DNA of 7,725 nucleotides from a virus (IMGVR_UViG_2778261422_000002); one strand, 5' to 3'; shown: positions 1-7,725, numbered from the stretch's first letter. The notes: generated by a model from the letters alone, not told the origin. A program made the numbers and translations.

Positions 1-18
1 GCCCAGCCCAGCCCAGCC
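1..18. repeat. Pentanucleotide tandem repeat (GCCCA)x3 plus GCC, truncated by the window edge
   Basis: Read directly: gcccagcccagcccagcc at positions 1-18. Its full extent is unknown because the window starts inside it. Confidence 0.6.
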
Positions 19-170: not shown

Positions 171-281
171 TAAGTTTGAAGGTGTCATTCTTTACGTATT
201 AATTCTTCTGTGCAAGTATATATACACCCAATAGAGACTAATTAAGTCTTAGTATAAATATCTAATGTGAAGGACATAGCC

Positions 282-509
282 ATGAGCTTATTGCCTCGGG
301 AAAACGCACCCCAAAAAAACTATAGACTTCTGAGAATATCTGAAGTGATTAATTTGACTGGCTTACCCAAGTCAACAATTTATCTAAAGATAAAGAATGA
401 TGAATTTCCGAACCAAGTTTCTATCGGTTCTCGTTCTGTTGCATGGGTGGAGCATGAAGTTAATGAATGGATAGAGAAAAATATTCTCAATAGAAAATTA
501 AACTCCTAA
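282..509 (+). CDS. alpA: AlpA-family phage transcriptional regulator (excisionase-like HTH), 75 aa from ATG 282
   Basis: Translation MSLLPRENAPQKNYRLLRISEVINLTGLPKSTIYLKIKNDEFPNQVSIGSRSVAWVEHEVNEWIEK has the AlpA/MerR-like HTH pattern (compare E. coli AlpA, 70 aa, recalled). AAGGA at 270-274 lies 7 nt before ATG 282; the ORF-track GTG at 267 has no ribosome-binding site. Stop TAA 507-509. Confidence 0.8.
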   Translation: MSLLPRENAPQKNYRLLRISEVINLTGLPKSTIYLKIKNDEFPNQVSIGSRSVAWVEHEVNEWIEKNILNRKLNS

Positions 510-526
510 ATTGAGGTGGCAATTAT

Positions 527-1387
527 ATGATTGACAATGTTTTTAAGAAAAAACTGGCATCAATTAAGAACGAACATGTGTCGGTGTTAGATAGTTACAA
601 AGTAAGCCCATTTAAAGAAACTCATAGCGACATAGCCTGTATTGTGCGTATTATCGAAATCTATTCACTGAATAAGCTGCGTGCTATAGGTGAAAAGCTG
701 TATTCACTTACGGGGTTAACAGTACCTGATACGGAAGCTGTGGCGAATGAGATCAACCTGCTCCTGACCCGTTATGCCCAGTTGTGTCGTCAGGAAGAGG
801 AAGAGTTATCTTTTCGGCAGCGTGAAGTGACAAATGCGGAAGTTGCATGGAAAAGCACATCCTCAAAAAACGGCGTCAGTAGCATTGCTGAAGCCAAAAC
901 GAATAAAACGGGGCATGCTGAACGAGCGGATGCTGAACGGTGTTATCATCTGGCTGTTTCCCGGCTGAATGAGCAACATAGCCGACTGAGCACAATCAAG
1001 CTTTTACCGGGCGTACTGGCCGATGAAGTTAACTACATTGGTAAGGGAGTTGAGAAGCGTTTACTGAACATATTTCCTCAATCCGGCCAGATCCCTGCTG
1101 ATTTTATTTCTGTTTTTAATGACGGTGACGTTGTCCGTGATATTAAATTTATTACAGATGCACTCAAATCTTTGTCTGATTCTGTGAGTGAAATTATTAG
1201 CCGTTGTAGCGTTCCAACTGATCGTTATGTATTAAATAACGGTGGAATGGCAAGAGCTATGGCTTACAGGGAGTACTATCGAGCAGATAATTATGTATTA
1301 CGTTCAGTCGTAAGTGACCGGGATTATGTTGAGCATGTAATGAAATACAATCGGGTTACTGAGTACAAAAATAAAATCTTTTCTTAA
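527..1387 (+). CDS. Hypothetical protein, 286 aa; candidate scaffold or capsid-morphogenesis partner of the downstream capsid homolog (function not recognised)
   Basis: Long ORF with GAGGTGG (513-519) 7 nt before ATG 527, starting 17 nt after the alpA stop and ending 22 nt before the capsid gene, so operon-like. Central region is charged and helix-like. Same position and similar size as P2 gpO (scaffold, 284 aa) relative to gpN, but I see no sequence similarity to recalled gpO or Sid. Confidence 0.7.
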   Translation: MIDNVFKKKLASIKNEHVSVLDSYKVSPFKETHSDIACIVRIIEIYSLNKLRAIGEKLYSLTGLTVPDTEAVANEINLLLTRYAQLCRQEEEELSFRQREVTNAEVAWKSTSSKNGVSSIAEAKTNKTGHAERADAERCYHLAVSRLNEQHSRLSTIKLLPGVLADEVNYIGKGVEKRLLNIFPQSGQIPADFISVFNDGDVVRDIKFITDALKSLSDSVSEIISRCSVPTDRYVLNNGGMARAMAYREYYRADNYVLRSVVSDRDYVEHVMKYNRVTEYKNKIFS

Positions 1388-1409
1388 ATACTTAAAAAGG
1401 TGAAAAACT

Positions 1410-2414
1410 ATGTATGCCTTCAAAACTGAAAGGCCGGACGCAGCACGTCGTTATCATAATAAATTCGTCACTGGCACTAACTATCAGGAAGAATCAAACA
1501 GACGCTTTGAATTAAGCGAACCCACTGAAAATATACTGCGTACCTCAATTCTGGAATCCGGGTGGCTTATTAAAAATATCACCCTACGTGATGTTAACGC
1601 CGTGTCAGGTAATGCCGTCAATATTGGTGCCAGTGAACTGCATACCGGACGTGTGGATGGTGGCCGTTTCCACAAAAAAATGGCAATCAATGGTACGGAG
1701 TTCTTTCTGACAGAGACGGATACCTGCGCCCGGATCAGCTATTCCGATATGTCTCATATTTACCATACCGGTGTGCCGGATGAGTTTGAGAAAACGGTTG
1801 AGAGCTTTTTTGCTCAGGCATATGCGCTGGACATGCTGCGGGTCGGTTTCAATGGTGTGTCGATTGCAAATACTACAAACCCGGAAATCAATAAAAAAGG
1901 CGAGGATGTCAATATTGGCTGGCATGCACTGGCGAAAGCCTACGGGAACGGAAAGCAAATCATCTCTGAGCCTGTCACTCTGGGAGAGACTGGCACCTGG
2001 AAAAATATTGATTCTCTGGCCAACCATCTGATTACTGAGCTTATTGCTGAGCAGTTTCGTGAAGATCCCCGTCTGGTTGTACTGGTTGGGGCAGAGCTGG
2101 CAGCACATCAACGCCTGAAGTTATTTAATGCCGCAGACCGCCCGGCTGATGTGAATGCTGCACAGATGGCTACAAGTTCTGTTGCTGGCCGCTTTGCGTT
2201 TATTCCCCCGTTTATGCCGGGTAAGCGTCTGGCAGTAACGACGCTGGATAATCTGCATATTTACACTCAGGCGATAACACGGTGGTTTCGTGCTGAGTTT
2301 GATGATGAAAACAGTGAATACGTACATTCCTACCTGCGCAATGAAGGCTATGCACTCGGTGAACCTGAACTGTACGCGGCTGTTGATGAGAGCGCCCTGA
2401 CGTTTGCTGATTGA
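1410..2414 (+). CDS. P2 gpN-family major capsid protein homolog (Phage_cap_P2-like), 334 aa
   Basis: AAGGTGA (1397-1403) 6 nt before ATG 1410. Blocks matching recalled P2 gpN: LDMLRVGFNGV vs LDFIMAGFNGV; NIGW vs AVGW; LITELIAEQFREDPRLVVLVGAELAA vs LIEPWYQEDPDLVVIVGRQLLA; TTLDNLHIYT vs TKLENLSIYY. Colinear over most of the length. Based on memory of the P2 sequence, not a search. Confidence 0.75.
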   Translation: MYAFKTERPDAARRYHNKFVTGTNYQEESNRRFELSEPTENILRTSILESGWLIKNITLRDVNAVSGNAVNIGASELHTGRVDGGRFHKKMAINGTEFFLTETDTCARISYSDMSHIYHTGVPDEFEKTVESFFAQAYALDMLRVGFNGVSIANTTNPEINKKGEDVNIGWHALAKAYGNGKQIISEPVTLGETGTWKNIDSLANHLITELIAEQFREDPRLVVLVGAELAAHQRLKLFNAADRPADVNAAQMATSSVAGRFAFIPPFMPGKRLAVTTLDNLHIYTQAITRWFRAEFDDENSEYVHSYLRNEGYALGEPELYAAVDESALTFAD

Positions 2415-2427
2415 CTTCGCGACAGAA

Positions 2428-2454
2428 AGACCCGCTCAGAAGCGGGTCTCGTTT
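2428..2454 (+). terminator. Stem-loop after the capsid gene (9-bp stem AGACCCGCT / AGCGGGTCT, loop CAGA) with a weak U-tract
   Basis: Read directly: 2428-2436 pairs with 2441-2449, followed by cgtttac. Lies 14 nt after the capsid stop (2412-2414). The T-run is short, so this may be a weak terminator or an RNA-stability hairpin. Confidence 0.3.
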
Positions 2455-2552
2455 ACAGCATCAGGAAAAATGAAGAACTATTTTTAAGCAGAGGCTTAAG
2501 CATGCCAGCGTTAATTAATCCAGGCAATGTTCAGTTTTCGGTTATAAATTTC

Positions 2553-2582
2553 TTGCCTCACCAGGAATGCGCGGGATATAGT
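2553..2582 (+). promoter_or_regulatory. Candidate sigma70 promoter: -35 TTGCCT (2553-2558), -10 TATAGT (2577-2582), 18-bp spacer
   Basis: Hexamers read directly; predicted start near 2587-2590. This would drive the short terminated transcript and/or the leader of the replication operon. No experimental support. Confidence 0.3.
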
Positions 2583-2587
2583 TTAAA

Positions 2588-2667
2588 GGTTGCCGCAAAA
2601 TCGGCAGCCGGGCGTAGGAACCCGTGTAATCTAACGGCGACACAACACGCGCCAGGCGTGTTTTTTT
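2588..2667 (+). ncRNA. Putative small terminated RNA of about 80 nt, possible analogue of the P4 CI immunity RNA or an attenuator leader
   Basis: Region between the candidate promoter and the intrinsic terminator. It contains box1 CGTAGGAAC (2613-2621) and box2 ATCTAACGG (2629-2637), both repeated at the RBS of the downstream gene. The overlapping ORF has an implausible translation. Length and position recall the P4 CI RNA; that is an analogy, not demonstrated homology. Confidence 0.3.
2644..2667 (+). terminator. Rho-independent terminator: stem 2644-2650 / 2656-2662, loop GCCAG, U-tract to 2667
   Basis: Read directly: ACACGC (2645-2650) pairs with GCGTGT (2656-2661), then seven consecutive T (2661-2667). 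An alternative outer helix CGACACAA (2638-2645) / TTGTGTCG (2666-2673) is also possible. Confidence 0.5.
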
Positions 2668-2790
2668 GTGTCGTAGCTTTGACTCACCTAAAATTTATGG
2701 TGTGGTGGCTGACTGCATGTTTTTATTTTTTACGCCACATCATCAGAATTATGGTAGTCCAGGCGGGGCAGCTTTCGGGCTGGCCGGTAT

Positions 2791-2880
2791 CCGTTAGAGC
2801 CGGTATTCCTACCCCCGTCTGGGCTACCACCCATGAGCGTAGGAACTCCGGTGGTAGCGTTACCCGCTATCTAACGGAGG
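2791..2880 (+). promoter_or_regulatory. Leader RNA element: an upstream arm complementary to box1 and box2, plus a second box1/box2 copy overlapping the Shine-Dalgarno of the 2889 gene
   Basis: Read directly: arm CCGTTAGA (2791-2798) is the exact complement of TCTAACGG, and TTCCTAC (2806-2812) is the exact complement of GTAGGAA. Downstream copy: CGTAGGAAC at 2838-2846 and ATCTAACGG at 2869-2877, whose final GG are the first two bases of GGAGG (2876-2880), 8 nt before ATG 2889. Interpretation as an RBS-sequestering switch is inference. Confidence 0.3.
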
Positions 2881-2888
2881 TTGCCATT

Positions 2889-3092
2889 ATGGCTACAGTC
2901 CCTGCTTTATCTCACCCTGAATTTACCTTTGTCTTTCTGGCTGTTCGCCGTACAGACCGTGATGCCTGTCCACGTCCTGTGCGTGTAATCGCAGACTGCG
3001 AGCATGCTGCACGCCTTAAACTTGCCACTGAATTTATCCTGAGCTTTGCTGCCCGTATCCCTGTGAAAAGTGCCGGGGAGGTGGTTGCATGA
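2889..3092 (+). CDS. Small hypothetical protein, 67 aa, first gene of the replication operon
   Basis: GGAGG (2876-2880) 8 nt before ATG 2889; stop TGA 3090-3092 overlaps the next start as ATGA. The ORF-track ORF 2502-3092 is this gene plus an upstream in-frame extension that I consider non-coding. Confidence 0.5.
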   Translation: MATVPALSHPEFTFVFLAVRRTDRDACPRPVRVIADCEHAARLKLATEFILSFAARIPVKSAGEVVA

Positions 3093-3728: not shown

Positions 3729-6022
3729 AAACACAGTCTGTATCCACGATTTCCGGGGCTGCGACTGGGCGCTGGCCTTATATCCTGTCAGCATTAGGTA
3801 TCAAAGTACCGTCCGCAGGACATCATGGGGCTTGCCCTGCCTGTGGTGGCAAAGATCGCTTTCGACTGGACGATAAAGCGGGGCGTGGGACGTGGTTTTG
3901 TAATCAGTGCGGTCATGGCGATGGTCTTGATCTGGTTCGTCTGGTGACAGGAAGAAAGATAAAAGAAGCCGCCGGGATGGTATCTGAGGCGCTTGCATTA
4001 CCAGAAATACAGGAGAAGCCCGCTTTGCCCGCCAGGAAAAAGGCCGCAGGAAAAGAAGCGGGTGCGGAGCGATATACCAGACTCAGACAGCAGTCCTGCA
4101 ATGGTGAGCCGGTCTATCTGACAAACAAGGGCTTACACGGCTATTCACTTCCCTTGCTGTCACAGCCTTTGAATCTGGCCGGAATAACATTTTCCTCCGG
4201 TTCATTACTGCTGCCGTTGACGGATATCTCCGGGAATATTACTGGTGGTCAGCTTATCAATCCTGACGGGGATAAAAGTCTGCTGCCAGGTAGCCAGCTG
4301 TCTGGCGCATTCATTGCCCTGACCGATATACCCGCTGAAACACCTGAACAGGTGATTATCACTGAGGGTTTTGCCACGGCGCTTACCGTCAGTCTGCTGA
4401 CTGAAGGATGGATCGTGGCGGCTGTCGCTGCCACCAATTTACTGAAGGTGACGGAGCAGATCCGAAAACGCTGGCCGGAAACCCGGATCATTCTGGCCGG
4501 AGATAATGATCTGGCTGACGGGAAAGAAAACACCGGGCGTATTCAGGCAGAGAAAGCCGCCAAAGCGGTGGATGGCTGGGTAACGCTCCCTCCGGTACGC
4601 CATAAGGCTGACTGGGATGATTATCGGCAGGAAGTTGGGAAAGAACGGGCGAGAGATGCCTTTCGTGAAGAAATGACGCTGCATGGCAAAGGGCAGACCC
4701 GTTTACCAGAAGGGTTCCGGCTGACAAAAGAATATTTGTGGTACGACAAGCTGGTTAATAAGTCGGATGGCGATACGGAGATACGTAATATCAAAATTTG
4801 CAGTCCGTTGCGGGTGACGGCAATCACCAGTGATGCTGATGGGAGTAATTACGGGCGTTTGCTGGAATGGGAAGATACCAACGGAAACAGCCGTAAATGG
4901 GCAATGCCGATGGAGATGCTGGGTGGCAGCGGGGAAGAGCTGCGCCGCGTTCTGCTGGTTAACGGGCTTTCGTACATCAACATTAACGGCATGGCCAGAG
5001 CATTCCTGATGGAATATATCTCGCTGTGTAAACCGGACAGAAAAGTAACCTGTGTGAATAAAACGGGCTGGCACGGCGGGGTTTACGTTCTCCAGGATGA
5101 AGTGATAGGGCGCGAAGCCCAGTCAGTCATCTTACAAACATCGAGCGTGCAGGGGCGTGATTTTCGTGTCAGCGGCACATCAGCGGACTGGCGTGAAAAT
5201 ATAGGCCGTTACTGCATAAAGAATGCCCGTCTGGCCTTTGCGGTGAGTCTGGCATTTGCTGCCCCCCTTCTGAAACTGGTTGGTATCGGCGGTGGAGGTT
5301 ATCACCTCAAAGGGGAATCAACAGACGGTAAAACCACGACGATGAAAGTGGCTGCATCAGTATGTGGTGGAACAGATTTCTGGCATACGTGGCGGGCGAC
5401 GGGGAATGCCTTAGAAGGAACGGCGAGCCGCCGCAATGATGCCACGCTGATGCTGGATGAAATCCGGGAGGTTGACGGCAGGGAGGCGGGGAATATCGCT
5501 TATATGCTGGCTAACGGGCAGGGCAAAGCCAGAGCCAGAACAGATGGTTCGGTAAGGGAAACCAACCGCTGGAATCTGTTGTTTCTGTCCACCGGGGAAC
5601 TGTCACTGGTGGAACATGCGGCAAGCGCCGGGGAACGTACGTATGCCGGGGTTGAGGTCAGAATGATCCAGATCCCAAGCGATTCGGGCAAATATGGCGT
5701 GTTTGAAGAACTTCATGGCTTCAGTAGCGGGAAAAACCTGGCTGAGCATCTTGAGCAGCACGTAGCGCATTATCATGGCGCACCATTCCGCGACTGGCTG
5801 CATTGCCTGACCGCTGATCTGCCGGAACTGACCAGCCAGGCGAAAGCCTTATTGAAAGAGTACACCCGAAGGCTGACGCCGGAAAATGCCGGGAATCAGG
5901 ATGGCCGGAGGGAGAAGCCTTTCGTGCCGCTCAACGTTGTCTGGCTGCATGGATGGCTGACCGGGGCCATACAGCTAATCAGGAAGATAAAGCGGCACTT
6001 GAACAAGTACGGGACTTCATGA
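3725..6022 (+). CDS. Alpha-type bifunctional primase-helicase (zinc-ribbon, TOPRIM primase, SF3/D5-like P-loop helicase), 765 aa
   Basis: CAGGAGGTG (3711-3719) 5 nt before GTG 3725. Zinc ribbon CPACGG...CNQCGHGDG; TOPRIM motifs ITEGFATA and ILAGDND; Walker A GESTDGKTT; Walker B LMLDEI. This architecture is the hallmark of the P4 alpha / PICI pri-rep family. Size is close to P4 alpha (777 aa, recalled). Confidence 0.9.
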   Translation: MKTQSVSTISGAATGRWPYILSALGIKVPSAGHHGACPACGGKDRFRLDDKAGRGTWFCNQCGHGDGLDLVRLVTGRKIKEAAGMVSEALALPEIQEKPALPARKKAAGKEAGAERYTRLRQQSCNGEPVYLTNKGLHGYSLPLLSQPLNLAGITFSSGSLLLPLTDISGNITGGQLINPDGDKSLLPGSQLSGAFIALTDIPAETPEQVIITEGFATALTVSLLTEGWIVAAVAATNLLKVTEQIRKRWPETRIILAGDNDLADGKENTGRIQAEKAAKAVDGWVTLPPVRHKADWDDYRQEVGKERARDAFREEMTLHGKGQTRLPEGFRLTKEYLWYDKLVNKSDGDTEIRNIKICSPLRVTAITSDADGSNYGRLLEWEDTNGNSRKWAMPMEMLGGSGEELRRVLLVNGLSYININGMARAFLMEYISLCKPDRKVTCVNKTGWHGGVYVLQDEVIGREAQSVILQTSSVQGRDFRVSGTSADWRENIGRYCIKNARLAFAVSLAFAAPLLKLVGIGGGGYHLKGESTDGKTTTMKVAASVCGGTDFWHTWRATGNALEGTASRRNDATLMLDEIREVDGREAGNIAYMLANGQGKARARTDGSVRETNRWNLLFLSTGELSLVEHAASAGERTYAGVEVRMIQIPSDSGKYGVFEELHGFSSGKNLAEHLEQHVAHYHGAPFRDWLHCLTADLPELTSQAKALLKEYTRRLTPENAGNQDGRREKPFVPLNVVWLHGWLTGAIQLIRKIKRHLNKYGTS

Positions 6023-6365: not shown

Positions 6366-6554
6366 GGTAACACTGGTAACAGAGGTAACGCCTGCTACTG
6401 ATGCGGTTCTTCAGTGTTACCAGTCAAAAATACTGACTGGTAACACTGGTAACAAAAAATGGTGTGTTACCACGCGTTACCTCTTGATTATGCTAACTGG
6501 TAACGGATTAAGTCCTTTTAAATCAATAACGTTACACGTGTTACCAGTGTTACA
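6366..6554. repeat. Iteron array: at least 10 copies of GGTAAC/GTTACC in both orientations plus 2 GTTACA variants; probable replication origin
   Basis: Read directly: GGTAAC at 6366, 6375, 6384, 6439, 6448 and 6499; GTTACC at 6416, 6466, 6476 and 6540; GTTACA at 6531 and 6549. Several sit in the longer unit CACTGGTAACA or its complement. P4 ori and crr consist of short iterons (type I TGTTCACC, recalled) bound by the alpha C-terminal domain; here the core is TGTTACC. Confidence 0.6.
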
Positions 6555-6621: not shown

Positions 6622-6894
6622 ATGAAGATGATGAGAATGTACTGCCCCACATGTCAGGCAGTAGCGCGGATAGGTAAAACAAACAGGAAACACCCACAAC
6701 TGTATGATGTGTACTGCTATTGCTCTAATGTGGAGTGCGGTCACTCGTTTGTGATGAATGTTGCATTCTCCCATTCCGTTAGTCCAAGCGCGCTGAACGG
6801 GCAGGGGAGGGTTAAAGAGCTAATTGATGCCATTCCACCCGAGGAGCGGGAAAAGGCTTTAAAGTTGCTGCTGGCTGCGCAAAAGAACAGGTAA
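6622..6894 (+). CDS. Ogr/Delta-family zinc-finger transcriptional activator (single-domain, Ogr-like), 90 aa or less
   Basis: Translation contains C-P-T-C ... C-Y-C-S-N-V-E-C-G-H-S-F, matching the Ogr/Delta pattern (P2 Ogr: CPLC ... CQNVNC, recalled). The start is ambiguous among ATG 6622, 6628, 6631 and 6637; Ogr-like proteins begin just before the first Cys pair, so the true start may be 6637. Confidence 0.8.
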   Translation: MKMMRMYCPTCQAVARIGKTNRKHPQLYDVYCYCSNVECGHSFVMNVAFSHSVSPSALNGQGRVKELIDAIPPEEREKALKLLLAAQKNR

Positions 6895-7725
6895 AGTATG
6901 CGTCGGGAATGGCCGATCCGTTCCCGAAACCTGAACACAGGATTTCAGTTAATTAGAATATAAAGTTATTATTTTTCATATGGTTATATTTTTCGCGTTT
7001 TACGAGCCTTCATAAAATCACACACCTAAAATAAATTATCCATTTAATATCATAGTGTTGCGTATTCAGACCACAGACACAACGGACAGTAAAACTGAAA
7101 AAATCTGAATTTTTTTTCATTCTTTTCAGTTCCTGTATCGCAGTACATCCCCAGCACCGGCGCGGACTGGCGGTGTCGTTTGTAAAAAATCCTGACTGAA
7201 AAATTTTAGTGATATGAAAACCGCAGGCGGGTGCGGTGTAGTGCGATTTTTGTCAAAAATGGTTTTCGTGTGTATGCCATAGTTCTATGCACGATTATGA
7301 AAAGAACATTATTTCATAGTGTTGATATCAAAGAAAAATTTTCTGAAAGTAAATGAATTTTCATAGAAATCAATTGGTTGATATGTCTTGGTGACGATAT
7401 TTTTGATGTCTAGAACGTATAGTTTTAGTGACTACTCATAAAACTATTGATTGAATAGTATAAATGTACTTTGAAGTGATTTGTTAAAGTTAATAAATAC
7501 AATGAGTTATAATGAATTCCATGAAAAAAATGAGAGATTGGGTAATGTTGCAAATTGCAAAAAACGCAAGTGATAGACTGTAAAAGTAACGAGTACTTTT
7601 GTTATAGTAGAGAGGTTATGATTGGTTTTCAATGTAATAAATTTTTTGTTAAAGGAATATACAATTGTTTATATTATCTCAAAAAACATTTACTAAATAT
7701 ATTTTAAAGGTGGCTAAATATATTC

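Follow-up and report, generated by a model that had tools for sequence, protein, structure and literature searches.

The window analysed here, a stretch of 7,725 nucleotides (nt) from the viral genome IMGVR_UViG_2778261422_000002 (one strand, 5' to 3'; positions are those of the window unless another record is named), makes up most of a 10.7-kb P4-related satellite island whose alpA operon encodes a P2-family major capsid protein (MCP) of its own, directly preceded by orf286, the gene of a 286 amino acid (aa) protein. P4 and its helper P2 are the textbook example of capsid piracy, in which the helper coat protein is caged by the satellite protein Sid. We lean towards the view that the present element is a cos satellite of an ESSI-2-like helper phage, and that alpA-orf286-MCP would be a capsid-morphogenesis module which functionally replaces Sid and Psu. 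The features of this operon are as follows.

282-509, + strand: regulator or excisionase of the alpA/vis type, with which the operon begins (PF05930, E = 6e-20; 46% identical to P4 ORF88/Vis)
527-1387, + strand: orf286, an all-helical 32-kDa protein, proposed scaffold or size determinant; conserved obligate partner of the MCP
1410-2414, + strand: satellite paralogue of the P2-family (HK97-fold) MCP, 334 aa (PF05125, E = 3.4e-66)
2427-2448, + strand: GC-rich hairpin 3' of the MCP stop codon, AGACCCGCT-CAGA-AGCGGGTCT, read directly

A capsid gene and a partner gene lie in the alpA operon of a P4-related satellite

The original prediction, made from this DNA, had placed alpA, a 286-aa open reading frame (ORF) and a full-length gpN-family capsid gene close together on one strand, and both the coordinates and the gaps of 17 and then 22 nt between the genes were confirmed. 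Shine-Dalgarno sequences precede orf286 and the MCP gene, and a terminator scan found no + strand terminator within alpA-orf286-MCP. The start of alpA is set at 282 by PGAP, while a GTG at 267 is also possible. The hairpin behind the MCP gene is the probable end of the transcription unit; its T tract is weak and the terminator scan did not call it, and a separate promoter-like site lies ahead of the next feature after it. Upstream of alpA, the motif TGT-N12-ACA at 209-226 was considered as an Ogr-type activator site and rejected, as it is not enriched (4 seen, 2.0 expected) and is not conserved in distant islands.

That the element is of satellite type, as had been proposed, is borne out by its att repeats, integrase, primase, Ogr-like gene, RNA immunity and cos site. 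In an otherwise identical Escherichia coli chromosome record, the full island measures 10,699 bp between 19-nt direct repeats at the 3' end of a tRNA-Arg gene, and its gene order is alpA, orf286, MCP, RNA immunity, primase, ogr, a 482-aa cargo gene and a tyrosine integrase. Portal, terminase, gpO, tail and lysis genes were not found in the island. The integrase gene lies beyond the window and beside the tRNA-Arg (positions 21194-22366 of locus L001), and its product is ~40% identical to P4 Int. Together with the 46% identity of AlpA to P4 Vis, and with a primase whose N-terminal third shares 39-41% identity with residues ~1-315 of P4 alpha, this defines a P4-related satellite backbone. The predicted absence of sid, psu and a two-domain delta held in the window and, by tblastn, extended to the whole island and to 27 related loci.

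The satellite MCP forms a single clade beside the MCPs of ESSI-2-like phages

The profile search left little doubt about the full-length capsid gene, whose product matches PF05125 at 224 bits (cut-off 27), covering 16-325 of the 327 profile positions, and also PHROG 70 ('major head protein') with E = 2.8e-85. Sequence matches among the solved P2-family MCPs are 7oz4 and 7jw1, and the score against the TIGR01551 equivalog is 197.5 bits, under its cut-off of 219.65. Membership of the gpN family was thus upheld, but the gene is not close to that of P2: the satellite MCP is only 25% identical to P2 gpN and 48-50.5% identical to ESSI-2-type MCPs, which are the closest phage MCPs among 50,697 phage records. 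In a neighbour-joining tree built on identity distances, 22 satellite MCPs group in a single clade, to which the MCPs of helper-type phages are the sister group (bootstrap of the split 94), and the branching within the satellite clade tracks the host families. One satellite clade with branching by host family points to a single old acquisition of the MCP gene, which would have been kept since.

Satellite and helper MCPs are collinear, and the satellite clade carries 20 clade-specific substitutions. The most remodelled part is formed by the first ~45 residues of the satellite protein, with 14-22% identity as compared to ~50% overall. In P2 gpN, the N-terminal region comprises the segment removed by gpO and the N-arm, and the N-arm of HK97-fold proteins usually faces the scaffold.

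The cos site, the Ogr-type activator and the MCP point to the same helper

Two further features of the window bear on the identity of the helper.

6622-6894, + strand: single-domain Ogr/Delta-type late-gene activator, 90 aa (PF04606, E = 5e-14)
7094-7254, + strand: ESSI-2-type cos region, with the cohesive-end core AGGCGGGTGCGGTGTAG at 7225-7241

A search with the non-coding DNA downstream of ogr led to the extreme end of Cronobacter phage ESSI-2 and of its Escherichia and Yersinia relatives, Peduoviridae with genomes of 29-31 kb. The cos region of the island aligns with the last 148 nt of the ESSI-2 record at 76% identity, and the match extends into the first ~28 nt of that record. The 17-nt cos core is identical to the ESSI-2 terminus. 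Each of the 27 full islands surveyed has it without a single mismatch, be they from Escherichia, Enterobacter, Kosakonia, Yersinia, Providencia or Salmonella, and it always lies between ogr and the cargo slot. In the ESSI-2 record itself (NC_047854), where cos is unannotated, ~15-17 nt (GCGGGTGCGGTGTAG) stand at both termini, the cohesive end being written twice.

The satellite Ogr shares 50% identity with the Ogr-like regulator of ESSI-2 and 52% with that of a prophage in E. coli SC477 (NZ_LR778152). This strain carries the island at 244-252 kb and an ESSI2-like prophage at ~1.81-1.83 Mb (within the region 1.80-1.85 Mb), between mntS and mntR, whose cos core is identical to that of the island and whose MCP is 49% identical to the satellite's; SC477 is hence a natural strain for a test of the helper. 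The same pair of island and prophage is present in the sister isolates LR778146 and LR778142.

Since cos, MCP lineage and Ogr are three independent matches, an ESSI-2-like peduovirus (Seongnamvirus/Quadragintavirus group), rather than P2, is well supported by these sequences as the probable helper. P2 was considered in this role and rejected, its cos GGCGAGGCGGGGAAAGCAC being absent from the island at up to 3 mismatches and the MCP being as distant from gpN as given above. The ratio of island to helper genome size is 0.35-0.37, as compared to 0.346 for P4 and P2.

orf286 and the MCP gene are conserved as a pair

The island is present at 95-100% identity in ~440-447 of 5,426 complete E. coli genomes (~8%). 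The idea that its backbone is common to canonical P4-like elements was rejected, as the other ~1,500 partial E. coli matches span only the C4/isrK segment. The satellite context was checked directly for seven MCP lineages and 21 IMG/VR loci, out of 597 homologs. In a survey of 28 loci, which answers the call for a comparison of homologous islands made with the original prediction, orf286 adjoins the MCP gene and the exact cos core is present in 27/27 loci with enough sequence, from Escherichia to Providencia, and the pair is thereby conserved across Enterobacterales. A P4-alpha-like primase is found in all of them except for an alternative-backbone Salmonella island, which has a primase of its own. 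None of the 28 loci contains Sid, Psu, a P4-type Delta, portal or terminase (tblastn; Delta at 1e-4).

Intact, full-length ORFs occur in hundreds of genomes from many genera. When compared to a relative at dS ~1, the ratio of nonsynonymous to synonymous substitution (dN/dS) is 0.06 for the MCP, 0.18 for orf286 and 0.045 for the primase, values that are approximate with dS near saturation. They indicate that both orf286 and the MCP gene are under purifying selection.

Islands of Yersinia ruckeri and Providencia have alpA, then the gene of a 278-284-aa protein, then the MCP gene, and the proteins encoded upstream of the MCP are orf286 homologs (hhalign probability 99.4-99.5%). In these islands, a gene for a 173-177-aa protein directly follows the MCP gene (loci L003, 10011-10532, and L005, 10017-10550), and in Providencia the MCP stop codon overlaps its start codon. 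The product matches only the serine-peptidase half of gpO (PF05929 positions 3-145 of 268) and shares 46-48% identity with the scaffold of ESSI-2 in the N-terminal part of the latter. A match restricted to the peptidase half suggests that the Yersinia and Providencia satellites carry a coat protein and a maturation protease but not the scaffolding half of gpO. By tblastn, no trace of the gpO peptidase gene was seen in Enterobacteriaceae islands, that of E. coli included.

The pair also occurs on a different backbone. In a Salmonella island (L007, 6296-16600; also L008), a 290-aa orf286 homolog (probability 97%) lies directly upstream of the MCP gene and the cos core is the same. Retention of the pair on this backbone suggests that orf286 and the MCP gene move between backbones as a unit, and gives evidence that the morphogenesis and cos modules may be exchanged between satellite backbones. 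The Salmonella backbone encodes a 326-aa integrase, an HTH_3 (cI-type) repressor, a Toprim_2 primase, a 162-aa protein with faint similarity to Ogr/Delta and a P4-epsilon-like 'Derepression' protein that is 41% identical to P4 epsilon.

orf286 encodes an all-helical protein specific to satellites

In an exhaustive hidden Markov model search of 1.84 billion representatives, the orf286 family comprises 56 clusters at 50% identity, almost all with lengths of 273-308 aa and with no informative case of domain fusion. Homologs across Enterobacteriaceae are ~288 aa long, with identity down to 42%. No match to orf286 was found in the 50,697 phage records, in Pfam, NCBIfam and PADLOC, or among PDB sequences.

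orf286 occupies the position that gpO has in the helper. It had been predicted to stand in this position without recognisable similarity to gpO or Sid, and this stood up: a diverged gpO, Sid or Psu was rejected at hhalign probabilities of at most 0.4% (Sid 0.1%, Psu 0.1%). Structure prediction and fold search, as had been suggested, gave an all-helical AlphaFold2 (AF2) model of good quality (pLDDT 88, pTM 0.82) on the one hand, and no fold match in PDB or BFVD on the other. As the protein lacks a fold relative, its role is read from context. The pointers to a scaffold are the gpO position, the all-helical model, the restriction to satellites, the peptidase-only gpO of related islands and the remodelled N-terminus of the MCP; in particular, a scaffold-like role gains plausibility from the peptidase-only gene behind the MCP in Yersinia and Providencia. 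Read most economically, orf286 would be an assembly partner, scaffold or size determinant, of the satellite coat protein. The protein is basic, with a pI of 8.2, while gpO and Sid are acidic.

A model for the alpA-orf286-MCP module and its alternatives

From the layout of the operon and the matches to the helper we infer the following course of events. Activation of the island would lead to co-expression of AlpA, the diverged coat paralogue and orf286. As a dedicated scaffold or size determinant, orf286 would physically engage the remodelled N-terminal arm of the satellite MCP, and the two would nucleate small heads with a capacity for a genome about one-third the size of the helper's. Such particles may consist of satellite MCP only, or of satellite MCP mixed with helper MCP as for the Ccm protein of SaPIbov5. 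Portal, gpO protease, terminase, head completion proteins and tails would come from the helper, except that the Yersinia and Providencia islands would supply the gpO protease domain themselves. The satellite Ogr homolog would switch on helper late genes, and the helper terminase would then cut and package the satellite at the matching cos.

Several observations weigh against this model. The fold of orf286 is unlike known scaffolds, Sid, Psu, CpmB and TcaP; the AF2 model of the satellite MCP is of low confidence (pLDDT 54.7) and was not used; and distant islands do not preserve the Ogr-type site in front of alpA. Three islands make a trimer of ~32 kb, which fits a helper-size head, so that the size ratio is no proof of small capsids. 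Helper-type prophages occur in 29/5,426 E. coli genomes, against ~447 for the island. Besides, deletion of the lambda-type MCP homolog of EcCICFT073, the one Gram-negative phage-inducible chromosomal island (PICI) tested in this way, relieved neither interference nor transfer, and the DNA of this island is packaged in full-size heads (PMC6092414, PMC10111431). This precedent warns against assuming that the MCP gene is necessary.

The same precedent would suit a purely antagonistic function, in which the MCP paralogue and orf286 are dominant-negative or decoy subunits that poison or misdirect helper procapsids, to the detriment of phage or helper, and are unneeded for packaging of the satellite. 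An MCP identity of 48-50% would allow co-assembly, yet there are 20 clade-specific substitutions and a remodelled N-arm; the island lies beside a hotspot for defence cargo; the MCP homolog is dispensable for EcCICFT073 transfer (PMC10111431); and an island far commoner than the helper prophage fits a defence benefit to the host. We nevertheless consider it improbable that poisoning is the whole function, as neither protein matches PADLOC models and the pair belongs to the core alpA operon, outside the variable hotspot, where it has long been retained across families (dN/dS 0.06). The extra gpO protease gene of Yersinia and Providencia is also hard to fit with a pure poison. This alternative overlaps the favoured model, given that interference and small-capsid formation are one act in SaPIbov5 (PMC8569155). 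Less probable again is that the MCP is a captured spare late gene, serving as back-up or dosage supplement, that orf286 is an unrelated regulator and that multimers travel in full-size heads like those of EcCICFT073. The MCP is indeed the commonest captured late gene of Gram-negative PICIs (21/29; PMC10111431), the ~32 kb of three islands are near the 29-31 kb of the helper, and a basic orf286 is unlike gpO and Sid. A back-up would be expected to be re-captured and helper-like, however, whereas the satellite MCP goes back to a single ancient acquisition and is ~50% diverged from all known phage MCPs. Strict adjacency to orf286 and co-transfer over two backbones argue for a joint function, and the island size is held to about one-third of the helper's, as in P4.

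A decaying P2-like prophage fragment beside satellite genes would account for a P2-family MCP, which PGAP calls simply phage capsid protein. This reading is excluded: the profile match is strong, no portal, terminase or gpO remnants were found, homologs show no premature stops, intact full-length ORFs exist in hundreds of genomes under strong purifying selection, and the element, whose ends are set by att repeats, is equipped with integrase, replication module and cos. The original prediction had offered three roles with no preference among them. Altogether, the evidence favours a role of the module in morphogenesis and leaves co-assembly, a self-built shell, interference and a dispensable spare gene unseparated.

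If the favoured morphogenesis model is true, a P4-related backbone may have solved the capsid problem differently, with a private coat paralogue, a novel partner and other peduovirus helpers. orf286 would then be a new family of head-assembly proteins, and the island a tractable Gram-negative counterpart to Ccm in which to ask how a coat paralogue sets capsid geometry. More tentatively, and at a level of confidence that stops well short of belief, these elements might be 'minimal capsid-forming' satellites, intermediate between P4, which has no head genes, and capsid-forming PICIs (cf-PICIs), which have all of them. orf286 would in that case represent a scaffold or size determinant of a new class and build a small, satellite-only shell on the helper portal, with the helper coat bypassed rather than remodelled, and in Yersinia and Providencia the satellite's own gpO-type protease would mature the shell.

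Relation to known satellites

The island resembles P4 in being an insertion of ~11 kb at a tRNA gene with about a third of the length of the helper genome, in AlpA/Vis, in its C4/cI-type RNA immunity, in a DUF5375-like ORF and in the alpha-type primase, as well as in a helper-homologous Ogr/Delta activator, a cos matching that of the helper and a defence hotspot between cos and integrase. It differs from P4 by the lack of Sid, Psu and a two-domain Delta, by having the MCP gene and orf286 downstream of alpA instead of a divergent sid-delta-psu, and by an ESSI-2-type cos where that of P4 is P2-type. Among the seven components that SatelliteFinder looks for in P4-like elements, integrase, AlpA and alpha primase are present, while Sid and Psu are absent. 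The Delta/Ogr component of the island has a single Ogr_Delta domain and is nearer to helper Ogr (50%); a tblastn search with the two-domain P4 Delta found nothing at 1e-4. P4 epsilon has no tblastn match in the surveyed islands except for the alternative-backbone Salmonella one, and the PF10554 match at 2502-3092 overlaps the isrK/C4 RNAs. With five of the seven components, the island would probably be scored 'Type C' by SatelliteFinder. The missing functions of Type C P4-like elements are said to 'remain unknown', as is whether other components make up for them, and a 'very distinctive' Type C subfamily is noted in Escherichia (PMC10085698). We cannot confirm that our island is that subfamily; should the morphogenesis model be true, it would explain what Type C elements use instead of Sid and Psu.

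A precedent is Ccm of SaPIbov5 (helper phi12), which is 24% identical to the helper capsid protein and forms the pentamers of small T=4 shells that exclude the helper genome (PMC8569155). SaPIbov5, too, is a cos satellite with a diverged homolog of the helper's HK97-fold MCP, and our island likewise combines a cos core identical to that of the helper with a helper-MCP homolog (48-50%). SaPIbov5 differs in its Gram-positive host, in an unrelated MCP lineage and in the delta (scaffold) domain that Ccm itself carries; the MCP of the island comes from a family that uses the separate scaffold gpO, and it is always paired with orf286.

MCP genes are found in 21/29 reference Gram-negative PICIs and are dispensable in EcCICFT073 (PMC10111431), while PmCI172 of Pasteurella has an MCP homolog and small heads (PMC6092414). 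EcCICFT073 (c1499/c1500) and PmCI172 share with our island the int-alpA-primase set and an MCP homolog; their MCPs are lambda-type or belong to Mu-helper systems and are unrelated in sequence to the one here, orf286 and Ogr are absent, and EcCICFT073 uses Rpp. Neither is a member of the present MCP family: c1499 of EcCICFT073 encodes an MCP of lambda type, which shares 45% identity with that of a lambdoid prophage in the same genome and has no sequence relation to the satellite MCP, and the helper of PmCI172 is Mu-like. The island also has the features listed for PICIs by Fillol-Salom 2018, namely int, alpA, pri-rep with an adjacent ori, a capsid gene, a length of ~10-15 kb and an absence of lysis and tail genes. 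Closer ties, to the P4 lineage, come from its Ogr-like gene, its immunity of C4 type, its P4-alpha-type primase and its peduovirus cos. cf-PICIs have an MCP of their own as well, and a head protease is common to them and to the Yersinia and Providencia relatives of the island. Their heads are encoded in full (portal, head-tail connectors, terminase subunits, HNH), so that the helper contributes no more than tails, whereas the island has at most three head genes and, without portal and terminase, must use those of the helper. Lacking both the Sid, Psu and P2-type cos of canonical P4-like elements and the portal and terminase of cf-PICIs, the island would behave like a Ccm-type or minimal capsid-forming satellite.

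Sid of P4, CpmB of Staphylococcus aureus pathogenicity islands, Rcm of SaPIpT1028 and TcaP of PLE are, like orf286, satellite-specific, all-helical and encoded in a morphogenesis position. The comparisons showed no similarity of sequence or fold between them and orf286, which, unlike them, is always paired with a satellite MCP. In helper phages, the gpO-gpN-gpM head module lies beside portal and terminase, and no island has portal, terL, terS or a full-length gpO.

The combination had been called an undescribed variation on P4-type piracy. A P4-type backbone with a P2-family MCP and orf286, the gpO-protease variant and the link to an ESSI-2-like helper were not found described in surveys of P4-like elements (PMC8628076, PMC10085698, bioRxiv 2026.02.27.708500) or in literature searches, the coverage of which is incomplete, so that a prior description cannot be excluded. 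Satellite MCP homologs as such are already known, from SaPIbov5 Ccm, PmCI172 and the 21/29 PICIs, and the island is a variant of them.

Other features of the island and its surroundings

The remaining features of the window are listed below.

2589-2834, + strand: isrK-like RNA (2589-2666) and C4 antisense RNA (2747-2834); Rfam RF01394, 71.8 bits, and RF01695, 81 bits, each exceeding its gathering score
3725-6339, + strand: P4-alpha-like primase/helicase with zinc ribbon, Toprim and DUF927 (Pfam Zn_Ribbon_Prim, Toprim_3, DUF927)
6366-6554, strand not assigned: iteron-like GGTAACA repeats, probable replication origin (5 matches, 0.07 expected by chance)
7665-7725, + strand: start of the variable cargo gene, 482 aa, in the slot between cos and integrase (L001 19738-21186)

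Both RNAs lie inside an annotated 196-aa Ash/Icd ORF (2502-3092; PF10554 and NF033153 matches). Of this 'Ash / host cell division inhibitor Icd-like protein', only the C-terminal ~48 aa fit the Icd-like model, and its long reading frame is probably an over-call that runs through an immunity region of the P1/P4 c4-icd type. Two small ORFs are also present in the window, one of them DUF5375-like as in P4.

The primase gene of the window has a 73-nt deletion near 5908 (~5897-5908), between short repeats (…ATCAGG / …CACAGG), which splits it into ORFs of 765 and 128 aa; the intact protein, as in NZ_CM146014, has 896 aa. The 73 nt are present in every matching E. coli record, including two that are otherwise 100% identical. 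The deletion is either a private inactivation or an assembly artefact, and the window copy may not replicate.

The 482-aa cargo protein has no Pfam or PADLOC match, and the small ORFs are likewise without a PADLOC match. In relatives, the same slot holds KwaA/KwaB (Kiwa), DndB, SduA_C, Abi_alpha or HATPase_c_3, which makes the E. coli cargo a candidate uncharacterised defence gene. With cargo of this kind (Kiwa, Dnd-like), the transfer route of the island bears on the spread of immunity genes.

One Logan contig, SRR32120834_2253 (L011, 10,456 nt), corresponds to exactly one island, as it starts 287 nt ahead of alpA and stops 140 nt beyond the integrase; it could be an excised circle, a packaged form or an assembly break at the tRNA/att repeat. 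Among IMG/VR viral genomes of ~48-51 kb that were predicted in isolate genomes (L017-L027), the island often sits at the edge of a predicted prophage region of ~50 kb, which suggests that prediction tools often merge it with a neighbouring prophage. Near its left end, the island has ~11 CCCAG pentanucleotides in tandem; they precede alpA (window 1-18; L001 11967-12021) and could form a slippage-prone tract. Directly outside attL lies a DUF4942 pseudogene fragment (L001 11529-11618), probably left behind by an earlier element of CP4 type in this tRNA-Arg site.

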